Sequence record: LC739533.1
Source of the DNA: Escherichia phage phiWec179
Length of the DNA: 64,000 bases
Reading direction: 5' to 3' (one strand)
How positions within the stretch are numbered: position 1 is the stretch's first letter; the number at the start of each line of letters is the position of its first letter. This document shows positions 15,697 to 22,769 of this stretch, piece by piece. The notes beneath the pieces were generated by a model, which ran no database searches, was not told the origin of the DNA, and worked only from the letters and a program-made list of their open reading frames with translations. A program made the translations under genes and the position numbers.

Positions 15697-16065
15697 ATGA
15701 AAGTCTTGAACTTCTACCATTTAGGTAAAGTTGTTCCCGACACTGCAATATACATTGGACGCGCGATGCCCCACTTCGGGTTGAAAGCGTCAAAGTTTGC
15801 CAACCCGTTCAAACTGAAAGAGGATGAACCAAGAGGTGCTACCATTCAAAGATACAAAGAGTGGTTGTGGGATCAGATCCGTTCTGGTAAGATAACTCTT
15901 GAAGATTTGTTGGAGTTGGAAGGTAAAGATGTAGTCTGCTTTTGCTCGCCCCAGAAATGTCATGGAGATGTGCTCGTTGCAGCCGTGGCATGGGCGCGAA
16001 GGGAATACGATAGACGTAATCCACCGTTTACGGATGGGTATTGGAACTGGGAGGAAAATCTATGA
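15697..16065 (+). CDS. DUF4326-like protein
   Basis: Recalled family motifs IYIGRAMPHFGL, FANPF, VCFCSPQKCHGDVL. Confidence 0.45.
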   Translation: MKVLNFYHLGKVVPDTAIYIGRAMPHFGLKASKFANPFKLKEDEPRGATIQRYKEWLWDQIRSGKITLEDLLELEGKDVVCFCSPQKCHGDVLVAAVAWARREYDRRNPPFTDGYWNWEENL

Positions 16066-16946: not shown

Positions 16947-18548
16947 GTGTCTAATACTTTGAGTTTCACTCCAACCGAAGAGCAATTTGCTATTGAGCGT
17001 GCTTTCGGGGAAAACCGTTTTGTAACTATTCAAGCAAAATCTGGTTCGGGGAAAACATCTACTCTATACATGTTGGCAAATGGCACAGACAAGAGCATCC
17101 TGTACCTGGCATTCAATAAGAGCATGGCGGAAGAGGCGCGTCGCAAGATGCCGCACAATGTAGAGTGTCGAACTCTGCACTCAATCTGCTATCAGAAGCT
17201 TCCACAAAACTTACGTCACAAACTCTCGCGTCCTGAAGGGAAGTATGTGAATGTGGCGGGAACAGGTAGCGAAATTGCCAAGAAGTTTAAGATCCAAAAC
17301 CTTATTGATAAAAACGGAAAGACTTTGGTCACTCGTGCTATGATCGGTTTAATGGTTAAACAAACTTTGGCTAAATATGAGTTTTCAGATGATGAGCATA
17401 TCTCTTTGAAACACTTCCCTAAAATGCACATCTCTGATCTGAAACGTAAGAATGTGAATGAGAATAAGCTGATCGCAGAAGTCGTTAAATATGCAAAACA
17501 ATTGTGGCGTGAGCGTATTGATCCTAACTCGGAAACGATCATGACTCATGACACCTATGTGAAACTGTTCGAACTATCGGGCGAAGATTTAGGGTATGAT
17601 ATCATCTTTGGTGATGAGTTCCAGGATGTTAACCCTGCATTCCTGTCTATCCTACGTAACGCAGAAAAGGCCAGTCGTATTGTGGTTGTAGGCGATGAGT
17701 TCCAGAGTATTTATCAGTTCCGAGGTAGTCAGAACATGATGAAAGAGACGGCTCAATATGGTGTAGAATTACCATTGACAGCATGTTTCCGTTTTGGTCC
17801 TAAAGTGGCAGACATTGCTAATGCGATCCTTAGCGATAAAACTCCACTGGCCCATCCACTGGTAGGGAAAGGGTATAACACGGTGACAGGTAGCTTCCAC
17901 TCGGATATAGTGGACTTCTCCAAACCGTACACAATCATCTTCCGTAAAAACCTGACGTTGCTTATGGATGCAATGGATCGTATTGCGAACGGAGAAGATA
18001 TCAATATTAACGTTGACACCAAAGATTTTATTGCTATGGTGGACAGTGTGAATGCGTTGCGTCGAGGAGATATTGACAAAGTGAAGCATGAAACCGTTCT
18101 ACCGTATGCAGACTGGCAGGAGTTTGTGGATTGTGCGGAATCAGATCCAGACGCTAAACGTCTACTGAATATTGTTGTTTCAGGTAAGGCTAACAACATT
18201 GCGTACACACTCCGTATGCACCGTAACTCACCTACAGCAAAGGTGACACTGACCACAGCACACAAATCGAAAGGTTTGGAATGGGACCAAGTTATTGTTG
18301 CAAATGACTTCCCTTCGAACTATGATAAGAAGACACGCGAGTGGGTAGGGCTGGAAGAATCTGAACGTAACCTTCTATATGTTGCTCACACACGTTGTAT
18401 TAAATGTTTGCAGTGGAATGAGACAGTGCATGAGATCTTAACCATGCAGCAATTAGGAGGAGACACATCTCCTAAAATGACGGAAGAAGATGAGATGGTT
18501 GCAGCATTGGCTCGTAAGATCAAGCAGATTCGATGCGAGGAGTATTAA
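16947..18548 (+). CDS. UvrD/Rep/PcrA-like superfamily 1 DNA helicase
   Basis: GTG start after AAGGAGG. Motif I AKSGSGKTST, motif II GDEFQDVN, motif III VVVGDEFQSIYQFRGS, motif VI VAHTRC. Confidence 0.8.
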   Translation: MSNTLSFTPTEEQFAIERAFGENRFVTIQAKSGSGKTSTLYMLANGTDKSILYLAFNKSMAEEARRKMPHNVECRTLHSICYQKLPQNLRHKLSRPEGKYVNVAGTGSEIAKKFKIQNLIDKNGKTLVTRAMIGLMVKQTLAKYEFSDDEHISLKHFPKMHISDLKRKNVNENKLIAEVVKYAKQLWRERIDPNSETIMTHDTYVKLFELSGEDLGYDIIFGDEFQDVNPAFLSILRNAEKASRIVVVGDEFQSIYQFRGSQNMMKETAQYGVELPLTACFRFGPKVADIANAILSDKTPLAHPLVGKGYNTVTGSFHSDIVDFSKPYTIIFRKNLTLLMDAMDRIANGEDININVDTKDFIAMVDSVNALRRGDIDKVKHETVLPYADWQEFVDCAESDPDAKRLLNIVVSGKANNIAYTLRMHRNSPTAKVTLTTAHKSKGLEWDQVIVANDFPSNYDKKTREWVGLEESERNLLYVAHTRCIKCLQWNETVHEILTMQQLGGDTSPKMTEEDEMVAALARKIKQIRCEEY

Positions 18549-18549
18549 T

Positions 18550-18801
18550 ATGGCGGGTTATCATTTAATAGATATTGAGAAACAACCTTACGGCAGTATT
18601 GAAAAGATTCAGGAAGAAGTTTATGAACTTTTTGATGCTGTCGAACAGGATTGCAAAGTTATGCAATTGGTTGAATTGTCTGATATTGTGGGTGCTGTTG
18701 AAGGTGTGCTGGAGACACAGTTTCCTGGGATGACGTTGCAAGATTTGATCACCATGTCAGACATTACCAAACGTGCTTTCCGCACAGGAGGAAGATCATG
18801 A
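18550..18801 (+). CDS. Putative MazG-like nucleotide pyrophosphohydrolase (small, all-alpha)
   Basis: EEVYELFDAVEQD...ELSDIVGAVEGV resembles the MazG EExxE...E..D pattern. Confidence 0.35.
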   Translation: MAGYHLIDIEKQPYGSIEKIQEEVYELFDAVEQDCKVMQLVELSDIVGAVEGVLETQFPGMTLQDLITMSDITKRAFRTGGRS

Positions 18802-19361
18802 ATGGGGAAGTCATTGCCAATGCGATCCACTATTACGGACGCTATGCACAAATGATTCAAGTACCTTACCTGGTAGATGCAGATATTCTTGCATACACAC
18901 TACCAGAAGGTAAAGAGGATCGCCCTTTGGGGCATCCTAATGGGAGATTCTATGTTGCCAGCGCAGAACAATCCTTCCTCCAGATGGAGAAAGATGGTTT
19001 TGAGTTTGTAGCAGAGCATCCTTATATGGCATTGACACCATGTTACCGCACAGAAGATGTTCTTGATGAAAGTCATTTTAACATCTTTCTGAAACTGGAA
19101 CTAATTGAGTTTTATCCGAAACATGGGCCTATAGCATATGCAAAGGATATGTGTAATTTTCTTTGGACCTATTATAGTCTGGAAACACGTATAGTAAAAA
19201 CTGAAATAGGGTTTGACGTGGAAGACAAATATGGGTTAGAATTAGGATCATTCGGGATGAAGAATTCTCCGAAAGGTCATCCGTACATGTATGCCACAGG
19301 CATAGCAGAACCACGAGCATCTATTGCTCTTAACCACAGAGAGGGGTTTATTTATGAATAA
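18798..19361 (+). CDS. Hypothetical protein (187 aa)
   Basis: Intact coupled ORF; weak resemblance to class II ligase motifs (see findings). Confidence 0.55.
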   Translation: MNGEVIANAIHYYGRYAQMIQVPYLVDADILAYTLPEGKEDRPLGHPNGRFYVASAEQSFLQMEKDGFEFVAEHPYMALTPCYRTEDVLDESHFNIFLKLELIEFYPKHGPIAYAKDMCNFLWTYYSLETRIVKTEIGFDVEDKYGLELGSFGMKNSPKGHPYMYATGIAEPRASIALNHREGFIYE

Positions 19362-20853
19362 GTCGATGGAAGAATTAGTTAAATATTATGTCCACACAGA
19401 AGACCTGACAGACGCAGAGTTTACCAAGATTTATGATCTGTGCGAACAGCTTCAACCTGGCCCGTGGAACAGTGAAGAAGACTTCCGTGCCGATGTTAAT
19501 CAAGATACAGGGTTTTTGTTCTTCGATCCTGCTAATGGCATTGATGCCGTACACAACGAAGATTATATCCCAGCAGGTCTTTCTGTTACCACTACAGAGC
19601 ATTTCGTTGATCTGCTTTTGGAGACAGCTTGGTGTGATTCCAAACCAATCTACTACTGCATGAAGGATACGCTACGTATGGCAGCAAGTCGCCTGTATGA
19701 CGGGAACTCTCGCTTATATACGGCTGTAGCCGAGCTTTATGGTAATGGTTGGACTGCCGATCAACTCCAAAAAGCTTGGGAAGAAGGGCGTGGTGGGCGT
19801 GACGTTGTTATTTTCTCTGAAGTTTTAGGGGTGGATTCTATCGCTTATGAAAATATTCCACGCTTAGGGACAAAACCAGAAATCATTGATGGAGAAGAAA
19901 TGTTAGATCTTATTTTAGCTAAAGTGGCAGGGCGATCTATTCACGAAGTGTGCGTATCTACCAGAAAGATCTCCACAAGTCAAATGGAATCTCTTTTAAA
20001 GATTTTCACCCTGGTGACTGGTGAAGGGTATTGGAAAGATGCTGAACATTTTCTGATGTATAGTCGTGGTCTGTCTGAACACTACTCTTTCTATAGTTCT
20101 AAGTCGGGGATTGATGGTCACAACAGTCCACAAGGATTAGAAATAGGTGTTGACGAATTTATCAAACTGTTTTTGAAGCATTTAGGTATTGACAATACCG
20201 AGAAATCATTGGAAGATATCCTTGCTGACTTAACAAAAGAAGGAGAAGAAGTGGAAGAGAATACTTTTGAAGTTGAAGAATATGTGGAAGAATACCTTCC
20301 GAACCCTGGGTTCCCTCCAGAGGGTAATCCTTATGTGAAGATCGTCTGCCGTAACGGGCAAACTTTCACAGGTCCAGCCGACGATATGGGTTGGAGGGTC
20401 GATGAGAACCATCCCCATGATCTGGATATGGTGAAATATATGATTGTTCCGCGTGTAGCCAAAGTGGAGGCTGCTCCAGATGAGGTAGTTGCTCCGGTAT
20501 ATGCACCGAAGCCACGTTATCGTAAGACGCGCCAAAAGCCTCCTGTAGGTAAGAAGCCAGTTGTGCGTATTCTCTACACTACACAACAAACGTACATGTT
20601 TAAGAATGTGGACAGTGTGCAGGTTACAGGTGAGAAAGTGTATATCCAGTATGCTCGTAATATTGCAGAAGGTATTGTTGAGTCTGTTGTTTCCGAGATC
20701 GACAGCAATCTGCTTCTCGCAGTGGTGATTGAAGAGAATGGACACCGTGATAATTTCTTAGCTAACATCGACGGTTCTTGGGATTACCAAGGGCATGATG
20801 GTACTGCCGTTAAAGGTGGTAAGCTGATGGGACGACAGTTCCTTTCTAAATAA
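19354..20853 (+). CDS. Hypothetical protein (499 aa)
   Basis: Long ORF followed by an intrinsic terminator; no motif recognised. Confidence 0.6.
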   Translation: MNKSMEELVKYYVHTEDLTDAEFTKIYDLCEQLQPGPWNSEEDFRADVNQDTGFLFFDPANGIDAVHNEDYIPAGLSVTTTEHFVDLLLETAWCDSKPIYYCMKDTLRMAASRLYDGNSRLYTAVAELYGNGWTADQLQKAWEEGRGGRDVVIFSEVLGVDSIAYENIPRLGTKPEIIDGEEMLDLILAKVAGRSIHEVCVSTRKISTSQMESLLKIFTLVTGEGYWKDAEHFLMYSRGLSEHYSFYSSKSGIDGHNSPQGLEIGVDEFIKLFLKHLGIDNTEKSLEDILADLTKEGEEVEENTFEVEEYVEEYLPNPGFPPEGNPYVKIVCRNGQTFTGPADDMGWRVDENHPHDLDMVKYMIVPRVAKVEAAPDEVVAPVYAPKPRYRKTRQKPPVGKKPVVRILYTTQQTYMFKNVDSVQVTGEKVYIQYARNIAEGIVESVVSEIDSNLLLAVVIEENGHRDNFLANIDGSWDYQGHDGTAVKGGKLMGRQFLSK

Positions 20854-20954: not shown

Positions 20955-22769
20955 ATGCATAATTTATATCAGGACGTATTTTCTTTTTTGGATAAAACTT
21001 GTGACACATATACACGAGAGAACGCAAACAAACCCTCTCACCTCGTTAACACACATAGGGACTTACTGGCGGGGATTTTAAGTAAGCACATGGCAATGAC
21101 TCAGATATTACCAAAGAACCTCGCAGAATGGCATACAGAAGGTTTTGGACATATCCATGATCTTGATTATCTGTTGTCTCCTCTTACGAATTGTTGTCTG
21201 GTAAACTACCAAGATATGCTGGAGAATGGCTTTAAAATCGGTGCTGCATATATTGAGAAACCTAAGTCCATTGGTGTAGCCACCACAGTGTTGACGCAAA
21301 TCATCCAGGCTGTTGCTTCAAGCCAGTATGGGGGACAAACTTGTGCTCATATTGATCAGGGGTTAAGTCAGTATGTTGAAGCTACCTACCTTAAGAATTT
21401 GAGAGAAACAGAACTACGTTACGGATACCCAGCCTGTAACGAAGCTTTAGCAGCAACAGATAAGGCTGTATATGATGCTATGCAGACATTGCTGTACCAG
21501 GTGAATACACTGATGAGCGTCAATGGACAATCTCCTTTCATCACTATCAGTATGGGATTAGATACAACAGTTTTTGGGAGAATGATCACTAAGAACTATC
21601 TTAAGGTACACAGTGAAGGGTTAGGGAAAGATCATGTCACACCTGTGTTCCCTAAAGTTGTGTTCTTCCTGGAGGAAGGTGTTAACATGGCAACTGAAGA
21701 TCCTAATTACGATCTGAAAAAACAAGCTTTAGAGTGTTGTGCAGATCGAATCTATCCTGACTTCATTTCTGTGCCTCTTAACAAGGAAGTGACAGGCTCT
21801 ACGAAAGGAAATGTTACCAGTATGGGGTGCCGTTCGTTCCTGTCTTACTACACTACAGAACAGGGAGAGAAGTATGATGGACGTTTTAATTTAGGAGTTG
21901 TGTCAATAAACTTACCATTAATTGCAGCTAAAGCAAAAACAGAAGGATATTGTTTCTCTGACCTACTTGATGAACATATGCGTCTGGCTTACGATGCTCA
22001 TATGCTTCGGGTGGAACGCCTACGTCATACACGCGCATCAGAGAACCCTATCCTGTTTATGGAAGGGGCTTTAGCACGTCTCAATGCTGACGATGAGATT
22101 GGAGTTTTGTTTGAGGGTGGGTATGCTTCAATCAGTATTGGGTATGTAGGATTGTCCGAAGCTTTGGAGATCTTATACTCTGAAGAAGCGGATAAGAAAG
22201 AGATGGGCAAAGCTATTCTGCAATACATGAAAGACACTTGTGCAGAGTTTAAAGAGTTGTCTAATCTGCCTTTCAGTTTGTATGGCACTCCTGCGGAATC
22301 CTTGTGCTACAAGTTTGCCACAGCTTTAAATAAAAATTATCCTAATCTGCATGTACGGGATTACCTGACCAACTCGTTCCATCAACCTGTTTGGGAGGTT
22401 ACAAATCCTTTTGAGAAGTGGGACTACGAAACAGGTTTTGCTCAAATCAGTAATGGCGGGAATATTAGTTATGTAGAAACTCCCAACCTGAAGAACAACT
22501 TGGAAGCTTTAGAAGCTTTGGTCGATTATGCTTATGAGCGCATCCATTACTTTGGCATCAATCAACCAGTGGATCAATGTTTCAAATGCAACTTTCATGG
22601 GGAGTTTAAAGCTACAGCAAAAGGTTTTGAATGCCCTTCGTGCGGGAATAATGAAGAAGAAACTATCTCCGTTATTCGTCGTGTTTCCGGTTATCTGTCT
22701 GCCCCTAACTCGCGCCCTTACAACAAAGGGAAAATGCAGGAAGTGTTACAAAGGGAGAAACATCTTTGA
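20955..22769 (+). CDS. nrdD: Anaerobic ribonucleoside-triphosphate reductase (class III RNR)
   Basis: C-terminal glycyl-radical motif RRVSGYL; zinc ribbon CFKCNFHGE...CPSCGN; 604 aa. Confidence 0.85.
   Translation: MHNLYQDVFSFLDKTCDTYTRENANKPSHLVNTHRDLLAGILSKHMAMTQILPKNLAEWHTEGFGHIHDLDYLLSPLTNCCLVNYQDMLENGFKIGAAYIEKPKSIGVATTVLTQIIQAVASSQYGGQTCAHIDQGLSQYVEATYLKNLRETELRYGYPACNEALAATDKAVYDAMQTLLYQVNTLMSVNGQSPFITISMGLDTTVFGRMITKNYLKVHSEGLGKDHVTPVFPKVVFFLEEGVNMATEDPNYDLKKQALECCADRIYPDFISVPLNKEVTGSTKGNVTSMGCRSFLSYYTTEQGEKYDGRFNLGVVSINLPLIAAKAKTEGYCFSDLLDEHMRLAYDAHMLRVERLRHTRASENPILFMEGALARLNADDEIGVLFEGGYASISIGYVGLSEALEILYSEEADKKEMGKAILQYMKDTCAEFKELSNLPFSLYGTPAESLCYKFATALNKNYPNLHVRDYLTNSFHQPVWEVTNPFEKWDYETGFAQISNGGNISYVETPNLKNNLEALEALVDYAYERIHYFGINQPVDQCFKCNFHGEFKATAKGFECPSCGNNEEETISVIRRVSGYLSAPNSRPYNKGKMQEVLQREKHL

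Follow-up and report, generated by a model that had tools for sequence, protein, structure and literature searches.

What does a phage gain from an 83-residue protein that carries the acidic residues of a nucleotide pyrophosphohydrolase, and does this protein act by itself? The question is raised by a gene at positions 18550-18801, on the plus strand, of a 64,000-nucleotide stretch of Escherichia phage phiWec179 (LC739533.1), which is analysed here as a whole and referred to as the window. An earlier note on this DNA had proposed a small MazG-like pyrophosphohydrolase that might degrade alarmones or signalling nucleotides, condition the host nucleotide pool or counter nucleotide-based defence. 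Our computational analysis supports the fold but not the proposed role. The small protein probably has the all-α nucleoside triphosphate (NTP) pyrophosphohydrolase fold found in HisE and MazG, and its gene is paired with one for a minimal class II aminoacyl-tRNA synthetase (aaRS)-like core. We give an even chance to the reading in which the small protein is a HisE/MazG-type hydrolase acting as the obligate partner of this ligase, the two forming a two-component enzyme.

The small gene starts with the ATG at 18550 and ends with a TGA at 18799-18801, and its translation of 83 aa is MAGYHLIDIEKQPYGSIEKIQEEVYELFDAVEQDCKVMQLVELSDIVGAVEGVLETQFPGMTLQDLITMSDITKRAFRTGGRS. A longer open reading frame (ORF) of 103 aa, reading from 18490, is also present in the mechanical ORF list; homologues start at MAGYH, and therefore 18550 is the start, not 18490. 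A Shine-Dalgarno sequence, GAGGAG, recognized from the sequence at 18537-18542 on the plus strand, lies 7 nt 5' of the ATG. Sequence identity over the region is 100% with the Escherichia phages phiWec181 and phiWec186 (Stephanstirmvirinae, Phapecoctavirus), ~95% with three more records and ~77% with the wider genus Phapecoctavirus. In phiWec181, the coding sequence of BDU12459.1, deposited as "hypothetical protein", corresponds to the small gene with agreeing coordinates. Nucleotide changes against three relatives fall at the third codon position in 36 of 61, 30 of 45 and 52 of 100 cases, a bias that argues for purifying selection on this frame. Homologues number 45 in a set of 5.8 billion proteins, representative clusters reach 1,024 at E ≤ 1e-3, and the gene is carried by 262 of 50,697 phage records; among the PHROGs, the protein belongs to phrog_6408 (E = 1e-41), a family without a function label. 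The small gene is real and conserved under purifying selection.

The earlier note had singled out an acidic helix pair, written as EE..E...E..D. That literal string is not contiguous in the protein, but its two halves are there, as E22-E23-x-x-E26 and E42-x-x-D45, separated by a 15-residue spacer and placed on consecutive predicted helices (17-32 and 36-57). The pattern EE..E-x(12-28)-E..D occurs in one of the 325 window ORFs (stop to stop, at least 60 aa) and arises in 0.4% of 20,000 shuffled versions of the small protein with unchanged composition. Among 186 family segments, 181 retain the exact spacer, and all five acidic residues are invariant both in an alignment of 41 close homologues and in one of 150 diverse representatives. 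The first half forms part of a metal-binding-type helix motif, K-x-x-E-E-x-x-E, represented by K19-I-Q-E22-E23-V-Y-E26 (codons 18604-18627, plus strand), in which K19 is also invariant, while the second is an E-x-S-D motif in helix 2, E42-L-S44-D45 (codons 18673-18684, plus strand), equivalent to E172-A-S174-D175 of Escherichia coli HisI. Closer to the N-terminus, G3-Y4-H5 (codons 18556-18564, plus strand) is invariant in both of these alignments, and Y4 aligns with the Tyr of the "SYT/SYV" segment of HisE, ungapped with C. violaceum HisE (2a7w) and likewise with E. coli HisI. A single ungapped register places Y4, K19, E22/E23, E26, E42, S44 and D45 on Y134, K149, E152/E153, E156, E172, S174 and D175 of E. 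coli HisI, all eight residues being invariant in the family, and the acidic-motif part of this register is common to E. coli HisE and both E. coli MazG domains. At the C-terminal end, T73-K-R-A-F77 (codons 18766-18780, plus strand) is an invariant signature specific to the family and outside the HisE/MazG consensus; used as a search pattern, it retrieved 42 viral and 19 genome loci.

According to Moroz et al. (2005), as cited in PMC10014863, the all-α NTP pyrophosphohydrolase superfamily comprises dimeric dUTPases, HisE and MazG. Only two Pfam families were matched by the small protein, both below the gathering threshold: PRA-PH/HisE (PF01503; E = 0.013, 16.3 bits against a cut-off of 21.3) and MazG (PF03819; E = 0.042, 14.6 bits against a cut-off of 22), the latter with residues 17-47 on profile positions 7-37 of 74. 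The search against PF03819, suggested in the earlier note as a check, was thus borderline, and since both curated thresholds are missed, the protein is filed in neither Pfam family. The PRA-PH profile was matched at E ≤ 1 by 34 of the 41 close homologues and at E ≤ 0.01 by 33 of the 150 representatives (best 2e-4); for the MazG profile, one representative in 150 reached 1.5e-4. Fused-domain families aside, no other Pfam family recurs among the 150, and none of the residue-shuffled versions of the 41 homologues matched PRA-PH or MazG.

An AlphaFold2 model of the small protein, built from the 41-sequence alignment, has a predicted local distance difference test score (pLDDT) of 90.7 and contains helices at 17-32, 36-57 and 63-78, with the N-terminal 16 residues modelled as non-helical. 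Against 350,542 PDB chains, the first ten Foldseek matches were HisE (1yvw, 2a7w, 7bgn, 7bgm, 1yxb) or MazG (2yxh, 3cra) structures, with probabilities up to 0.97, query TM-scores (TMq) of 0.48-0.57, a root-mean-square deviation of 1.6-3.1 Å for most, and E-values of 0.4-1.2; further HisE/MazG neighbours (1y6x, 7yh5, 6j22, 1vmg) appeared below rank 10. In BFVD, the family's own members came first, one of them a 207-aa Acinetobacter phage protein named "MazG-like domain protein" by its depositors, followed by weak viral "NTP-PPase-like", "MazG" and "PRA-PH-like" matches. Additionally, when the 150-member profile was compared with PDB sequences, HisE 2a7w from Chromobacterium was the second-best match, over 53 ungapped residues (E = 0.18), and the same structure also ranks second by fold.

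With the paired acidic helix motif and an all-α fold superimposable on HisE/MazG, the superfamily-level features are present, and the small protein is probably a divergent, minimal three-helix member of the all-α NTP pyrophosphohydrolase superfamily. This assignment rests on weak convergent sequence signals, the fold and the catalytic-type residues, not on one significant score. Within the superfamily, the protein is nearer to HisE than to canonical MazG, so that the MazG-like pyrophosphohydrolase of the earlier note holds as to fold and motif, but not as to PF03819. HisE (1yvw, 2a7w, 1y6x, 1yxb), a protein of similar size (83-92 aa), is both its best Pfam match and its best structural neighbour, and the two share one ungapped register with the Tyr, the Lys, EExxE, the 15-residue spacer and ExSD. 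Nevertheless, the small protein stays below the HisE threshold, adds the invariants H5, Q33, M38 and TKRAF, and has three predicted helices; it is neither fused to hisI nor part of a his operon, its phage neighbours being a helicase, the aaRS-like core and NrdD. Its substrate is unlikely to be phosphoribosyl-ATP (PR-ATP).

Directly downstream, at 18798-19361 on the plus strand, lies a gene for a 187-aa SerRS-like, class II aaRS-like catalytic core (phrog_4806), and the two genes share translational coupling, adjacency, fusion and co-inheritance. The coupling element (18786-18801, plus strand) consists of a Shine-Dalgarno sequence, AGGAGG, at 18786-18791 within the end of the small gene, and of an ATGA overlap in which the partner ATG occupies 18798-18800 and the small-gene TGA 18799-18801. 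The pair was present in 45 of 46 loci from viral contigs and metagenomes, the remaining locus ending at a contig edge, and in 18 of 18 informative loci (19 found, mostly on contigs of metagenome-assembled genomes, MAGs) from a genome collection of 185,579 species; the two genes are adjacent or fused in 63 of 63 informative loci. The small gene comes first in 50 of the 59 unique pairs, the order is reversed in 6, and 3 are single fused ORFs, while 47 of the 56 unfused unique pairs overlap or are separated by a gap of at most 6 nt. Fusions of aaRS-like and HisE-like domains account for 5 of the 150 representative proteins. The distances of the two proteins correlate as well (Mantel r = 0.52, a value reached in 0 of 2000 permutations). 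In three divergent metagenomic contexts, both genes remain adjacent and the surroundings are all different, and a search for a third conserved gene around the pair found none, no neighbour recurring in more than 6 of 46 loci.

The same pair occurs in T4-like Acinetobacter phages, in giant Caulobacter and Brevundimonas phages and in Bacillus phage G; in Acinetobacter phage Lazarus (L075:3001-4190), it corresponds to orf119/orf118. Depositors of Acinetobacter phages independently named their homologue of the small protein "MazG-like". The HisE-like protein of the T4-like Acinetobacter phages has 207 aa, with the domain at the N-terminus and an extension of ~125 aa, and is labelled "MazG-like domain protein"; the adjoining 194-aa gene is labelled both "histidyl tRNA synthetase" and "putative seryl-tRNA synthetase", the public annotations being inconsistent. 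The pair was also observed on several MAG contigs of Candidatus Saccharibacteria, of the candidate phyla radiation (CPR), that reach up to 736 kb, near genome size (L053, L056, L057, L060, L062). A literature search for the pair returned no description of both genes as one unit. In a paper on a Citromicrobium phage, MazG genes g118/g119 and a "SerRS" gene, g121, which may belong to the same module, are given functions with no relation to each other (PMC8953757). In genome papers and deposits, the two genes are treated as unrelated, one under "MazG, nucleotide scavenging" and the other under "seryl/histidyl-tRNA synthetase, protein synthesis".

The partner encoded in the window gave no Pfam match, and hence no Pfam aaRS match. 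It belongs to phrog_4806 (E = 1e-63), which carries the PHROG label "histidyl tRNA synthetase", and some depositors have named it a seryl- or a histidyl-tRNA synthetase. When a profile built from 43 homologues was compared with the PDB, it matched SerRS 2dq3 (E = 1.8e-6), and then PylRS, AspRS and AsnRS; the TPCYRxE of the partner lines up with TPCYRRE, motif 2 of Aquifex SerRS, and its SAEQS segment with the TAE segment of SerRS. The AlphaFold2 model (pLDDT 94.2) was matched by Foldseek to the catalytic domains of PylRS, SerRS and HisRS (E ~1e-9, TMq up to 0.77). In motif 2 of the partner, T80-P-C-Y-R84-T-E86 (class II "fRxE"; 19035-19055, plus strand), residues T80, P81, C82 and R84 are invariant, and E86 is so solely in a four-sequence alignment. 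The segment T167-G-I-A-E-P-R173 (19296-19316, plus strand), with T167, P172 and R173 invariant, we take from established class II aaRS knowledge to be motif 3, of the "GxGxGxxR" type, and E148-x-x-S151 to be the SerRS-type ExxS Mg site. P23 (motif 1), E57, F97, E148, G150, S151 and G153 are invariant too. In class II enzymes in general, these are the residues by which the amino group, ATP and Mg2+ are bound.

With 187 aa in total, the partner comprises the catalytic core alone, the aligned synthetase targets having 250-520 aa, and there is therefore no room for a tRNA-binding or anticodon-binding domain. In addition, its motif 2 loop is ~6-7 residues shorter than that of SerRS. The partner is a minimal class II adenylate-forming core, not a usual tRNA synthetase, and, judging from its conserved residues, it is expected to produce an aminoacyl (or acyl) adenylate. 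A link to histidine, as might be drawn from a HisE-like protein next to a "histidyl-tRNA synthetase" label (His-ADPR or a HisZ-like function), was not adopted, the partner being at least as near to SerRS and PylRS as to HisRS.

What we infer for the pair, from catalytic activity, oligomeric state and physical complex to substrate, product and biological role, can be laid out in steps. By analogy with its superfamily, the small protein would bind Mg2+ through E22, E23, E26, E42 and D45, assemble as a dimer or tetramer, and cut the α-β bond of an NTP or NTP derivative to yield a nucleoside monophosphate (NMP) and pyrophosphate (PPi). The partner core, equipped with ATP-, Mg- and α-amino-binding residues, would make an aminoacyl adenylate; the HisE-like subunit would commit the nucleotide through hydrolysis of NTP to NMP, and the ligase would join an activated amino acid either to this nucleotide or to some small acceptor related to it. 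The outcome would be a nucleotide-amino acid conjugate serving infection. That the pair makes such a conjugate, for instance an aminoacylated mononucleotide from an NTP cleaved on the enzyme, is a tentative proposal that we regard as rather unlikely in this specific form. If true, large phages would use the conjugate for host takeover, modification of nucleic-acid precursors or counter-defence, and the partner would rank as the smallest class II synthetase-type core in nature with catalytic activity.

Recognition of the small protein as a divergent family of the HisE/MazG fold (phrog_6408), one that the annotations of Pfam, NCBIfam and PHROG miss, is a modest gain; the strict linkage and the fusions to a minimal class II core are the more valuable result. 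Should the pair act jointly, the "tRNA synthetase" labels in many large-phage genomes mislead, and a new phage nucleotide-amino acid chemistry becomes testable with two small soluble proteins. A natural class II core of ~180 aa is also relevant to ideas on minimal ancestral synthetases.

Several results weigh against a HisE/MazG-type hydrolase working with a ligase. At the level of sequence, no curated Pfam profile is reached at threshold, and NCBIfam gave nothing relevant for either protein of the pair. The best E-value of the broad profile to HisE is just the 0.18 given above, and the 41-homologue profile, compared with PDB sequences, found neither HisE nor MazG; the search with the single sequence returned designed helical proteins only (E ≥ 0.13). 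Alignment of the family with E. coli MazG by hhalign gave a spurious match of 21 columns, not significant, and alignment of the 186-segment family with a 113-sequence HisE alignment of low diversity (effective number of sequences, Neff, 2.8) gave nothing significant. A self-built hidden Markov model (HMM) of HisE did not separate family members from their reversed or shuffled versions, and therefore we claim no significant sequence relationship beyond the Pfam-level signal. Foldseek gave weak E-values against the PDB (0.4-3), which is common for helical proteins of 83 residues. HisE and MazG have four or five helices, compared with three in the model, and the family has invariants of its own that are alien to both (H5, Q33, M38 and T73-K-R-A-F77); with these foreign residues and the smaller number of helices, the chemistry could differ. 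On the functional side, it is not obvious how the release of PPi would help an adenylating enzyme, which PPi inhibits, and the tRNA genes near 13 of 60 loci leave a tRNA-directed role some probability.

Comparison with known systems places the pair in context. MazG enzymes, among them single-domain forms from archaea and phages, share with the small protein the superfamily and the EExxE...ExxD motif, and 2yxh, 3cra, 7yh5 and 1vmg are among the Foldseek matches, in contrast to the profile scores given above. We know of no MazG enzyme with an obligate link to an aaRS-like partner. Their substrates vary: cyanophage MazG prefers dGTP and dCTP and does not cleave (p)ppGpp (PMC6850273), the phage MazG-like Atd1 cleaves and depletes (p)ppGpp (bioRxiv 10.1101/2022.06.09.495361), and MazZ is (d)GTP-specific, converting (d)GTP to (d)GMP, which is then used by PurZ (PMC8342488). 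Membership of the family therefore does not predict the substrate. The MazZ-PurZ couple of the 2-aminoadenine (Z-genome) phages resembles the present pair in that an NTP pyrophosphatase is co-conserved with an ATP-dependent ligase, which may be read as an analogy of pathway logic only. In contrast to PurZ, the partner described here is not homologous to adenylosuccinate synthetase, its fold being that of the class II aaRSs; MazZ has added C-terminal strands, and no purZ, datZ or dpoZ was found beside the pair. A second precedent for the proposed joint mechanism is puromycin biosynthesis, in which an NTP-pyrophosphatase step by Pur7 and an aminoacyl-ligase step by Pur6 both occur.

On the side of the ligase, tRNA-independent class II paralogues include truncated SerRS-like amino-acid:[carrier-protein] ligases, AsnA, EpmA/PoxA and HisZ. 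The partner is like them in being a core without tRNA-binding domains, with the SerRS-like "SAE" and "ExxS" elements and a helical neighbour of ~80 aa. Unlike these proteins, which have ~300 aa or more, it has ~180 aa, and the small protein next to it is of the HisE/MazG type in fold and motif and does not have the fold of an acyl carrier protein (ACP).

The same fold and motif would be expected of a free-standing phage enzyme of the MazG-like kind, one that cleans up or adjusts pools of dNTPs, (p)ppGpp or immune signalling nucleotides and whose neighbour is incidental. Atd1 and cyanophage MazG offer phage precedents for this, and in phiWec179 the gene lies in a block of DNA and nucleotide metabolism together with a helicase and NrdD. 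We nevertheless hold it to be improbable: the aaRS-like gene is kept in 63 of 63 informative loci, in unrelated contexts and in both orders, which is not expected of independent enzymes, and PF03819 is reached only below threshold. As for the roles advanced in the earlier note, nothing links the small gene to alarmones, signalling nucleotides or a role with (p)ppGpp or dNTPs, and a part in counter-defence found no backing in PADLOC, where neither protein nor any of the fusions gave a match, the sole resemblance being that of the radical-SAM part of one fusion protein (P0061) to pVip, and a weak one. That the small gene is obligately linked with an aaRS-like ligase of class II argues against an enzyme that conditions the host nucleotide pool on its own.

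No more probable is a small protein that is no hydrolase at all and serves the mini-synthetase as a specificity or regulatory subunit, or as an amino-acid acceptor or carrier, in the manner of the carrier proteins beside truncated SerRS-like ligases or of partnerships of the HisZ/HisG type. Obligate pairing and fusion would suit such a subunit, as would its being small, helical and acidic with invariant Ser44, Lys19 and Lys74, and the sequence link to HisE/MazG is sub-threshold. Truncated SerRS homologues reportedly occur with an adjacent carrier protein of ~80 aa, a finding said to be that of Mocibob and colleagues from 2010. For a carrier, however, one would look to the phosphopantetheine-binding (PP-binding/ACP) family PF00550, which was not matched in Pfam scans of the 41 and the 150 members, and no carrier protein is among the 50 Foldseek PDB matches listed. 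Moreover, Ser44 sits in the middle of helix 36-57 of a confident model and not at a helix N-cap, and HisE has an equivalent Ser. A non-catalytic scaffold, for its part, would not need the putative metal ligands E22, E23, E26, E42 and D45, which are invariant in more than 150 divergent sequences. The carrier-protein reading was rejected on grounds of fold and profile, and the accessory subunit as a whole appears unlikely to us.

The pair might also work on the ends of tRNA or other RNA, with the class II core aminoacylating or modifying a 3' end without anticodon recognition and the HisE-like subunit processing a nucleotide, a 5'-triphosphate or a 3'-terminal nucleotide, in a pathway of repair or evasion. 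The partner does keep the catalytic residues assigned as SerRS-type, some depositors' labels name a synthetase, and 13 of 60 loci have tRNA genes no more than 4-6 kb away from the pair, with tRNA-Gln and tRNA-His directly 3' of it at three of them (L040, L041, L043); an Rnl2 RNA ligase, a PolyA_pol/CCA-type domain, an RF-1 domain and a TyrRS are neighbours at single loci. Yet each of these translation-related neighbours was seen once, no tRNA gene is present in the 64-kb window or in 47 of the 60 loci, and the partner has neither a tRNA- nor an anticodon-binding domain and a shortened motif 2 loop. To our knowledge, no role joins an NTP pyrophosphatase with aminoacylation, which also counts against this possibility, and we consider it as doubtful as the two preceding ones. 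Finally, a nonfunctional ORF, or an acidic motif that is an accident of a glutamate-rich helical peptide, could be argued from the shortness of the gene and the lack of a curated family assignment, but is effectively refuted by the 1,024 clusters, the 262 phage genomes, the third-codon bias and the strong ribosome-binding site on the one hand, and by the rarity of the motif in shuffles and window ORFs and its retention in 181 of 186 relatives on the other.

Beyond the simple pair, the HisE-like domain appears in several larger architectures. Tandem MazG enzymes have a degenerate second domain, and the relatives of the small protein resemble them in this respect: 14 of the 150 representatives contain two tandem HisE-like domains, and in the two that were examined, P0046 and P0047, the second copy is without the acidic residues and keeps the C-terminal signature. 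In 9 of 150 representatives (P0083, P0092, P0097, P0116, P0118, P0152, P0157, P0162 and P0176), the HisE-like domain is fused to a domain of ~180 aa that we call "HDHRY" and that includes the conserved segments "FGLGFIQ", "HF(W/Y)H" and "E-x-H-D-H-R/K-Y-x-F". This domain had no Pfam match and may hold a cupin-like metal site. At three of the fusion loci (L021:3419-4246, L032:3434-4243 and L073:1993-2790), the ligase gene lies directly 3', at the last of them probably. Two further proteins, P0061 and P0086, combine a radical-SAM part, weakly like MoaA, viperin and QueE, with the HisE-like domain. One of these two fusions lies on a contig from Logan (ERR962072; L070:610-4338), where the fusion gene is followed by a Metallophos phosphoesterase gene, the aaRS-like gene, a gene for 131 aa and another radical-SAM gene; in-frame stop codons in the aaRS-like gene and in a VWA gene of this locus suggest a phage that uses a reassigned stop codon. 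The "HDHRY" and radical-SAM domains are lineage-restricted additions, and the fusion architectures suggest a nucleotide-centred or small-molecule tailoring pathway with the pyrophosphatase domain as its hub.

In the window, the pair is flanked on the plus strand by a UvrD-type DNA helicase at 16947-18548 (PF00580, 4e-19; phrog_1967, 1.6e-156) and a 499-aa ORF at 19354-20853. The adjacency to a helicase reported in the earlier note is confirmed, the ATG of the small gene lying 1 nt past the helicase TAA at 18546-18548. The helicase is context in this phage lineage, the upstream genes differing at other loci. The 499-aa ORF overlaps the end of the partner gene by 8 nt and is without a Pfam match; its match to phrog_15930, a PHROG with the label "ribonucleotide reductase", is confined to the C-terminal 115 aa, and just 3' of the ORF lies nrdD (20955-22769), for an anaerobic ribonucleotide reductase. 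This ORF is absent from the recurrent neighbours of the pair.

Among other loci, those with tRNA genes near the pair include L020, L021, L028, L031, L035, L040, L041, L043, L058-L060 and L062; we judged a linkage of the pair to tRNA genes, at 13 of 60 loci and with none in the window, too weak to build on. One locus (L005:1255-3757) contains phosphoribosyl pyrophosphate (PRPP)-synthetase-like (Pribosyltran/Pribosyl_synth) and NAPRTase-like genes ~2 kb 5' of the pair, which we take to resemble NARP1, a published phage pathway for NAD+ reconstitution, and an RF-1-domain gene two genes 3' of the pair. NMNAT-like and Nampt-like ORFs were identified by eye from the sequences in 3-4 other loci. The small genes 5' of the helicase in the window include one, at 15697-16065, for a DUF4326 protein (PF14216, E = 5e-21), which also matches the PHROGs "ribonucleotide reductase NrdA-like" and "DNA repair protein".

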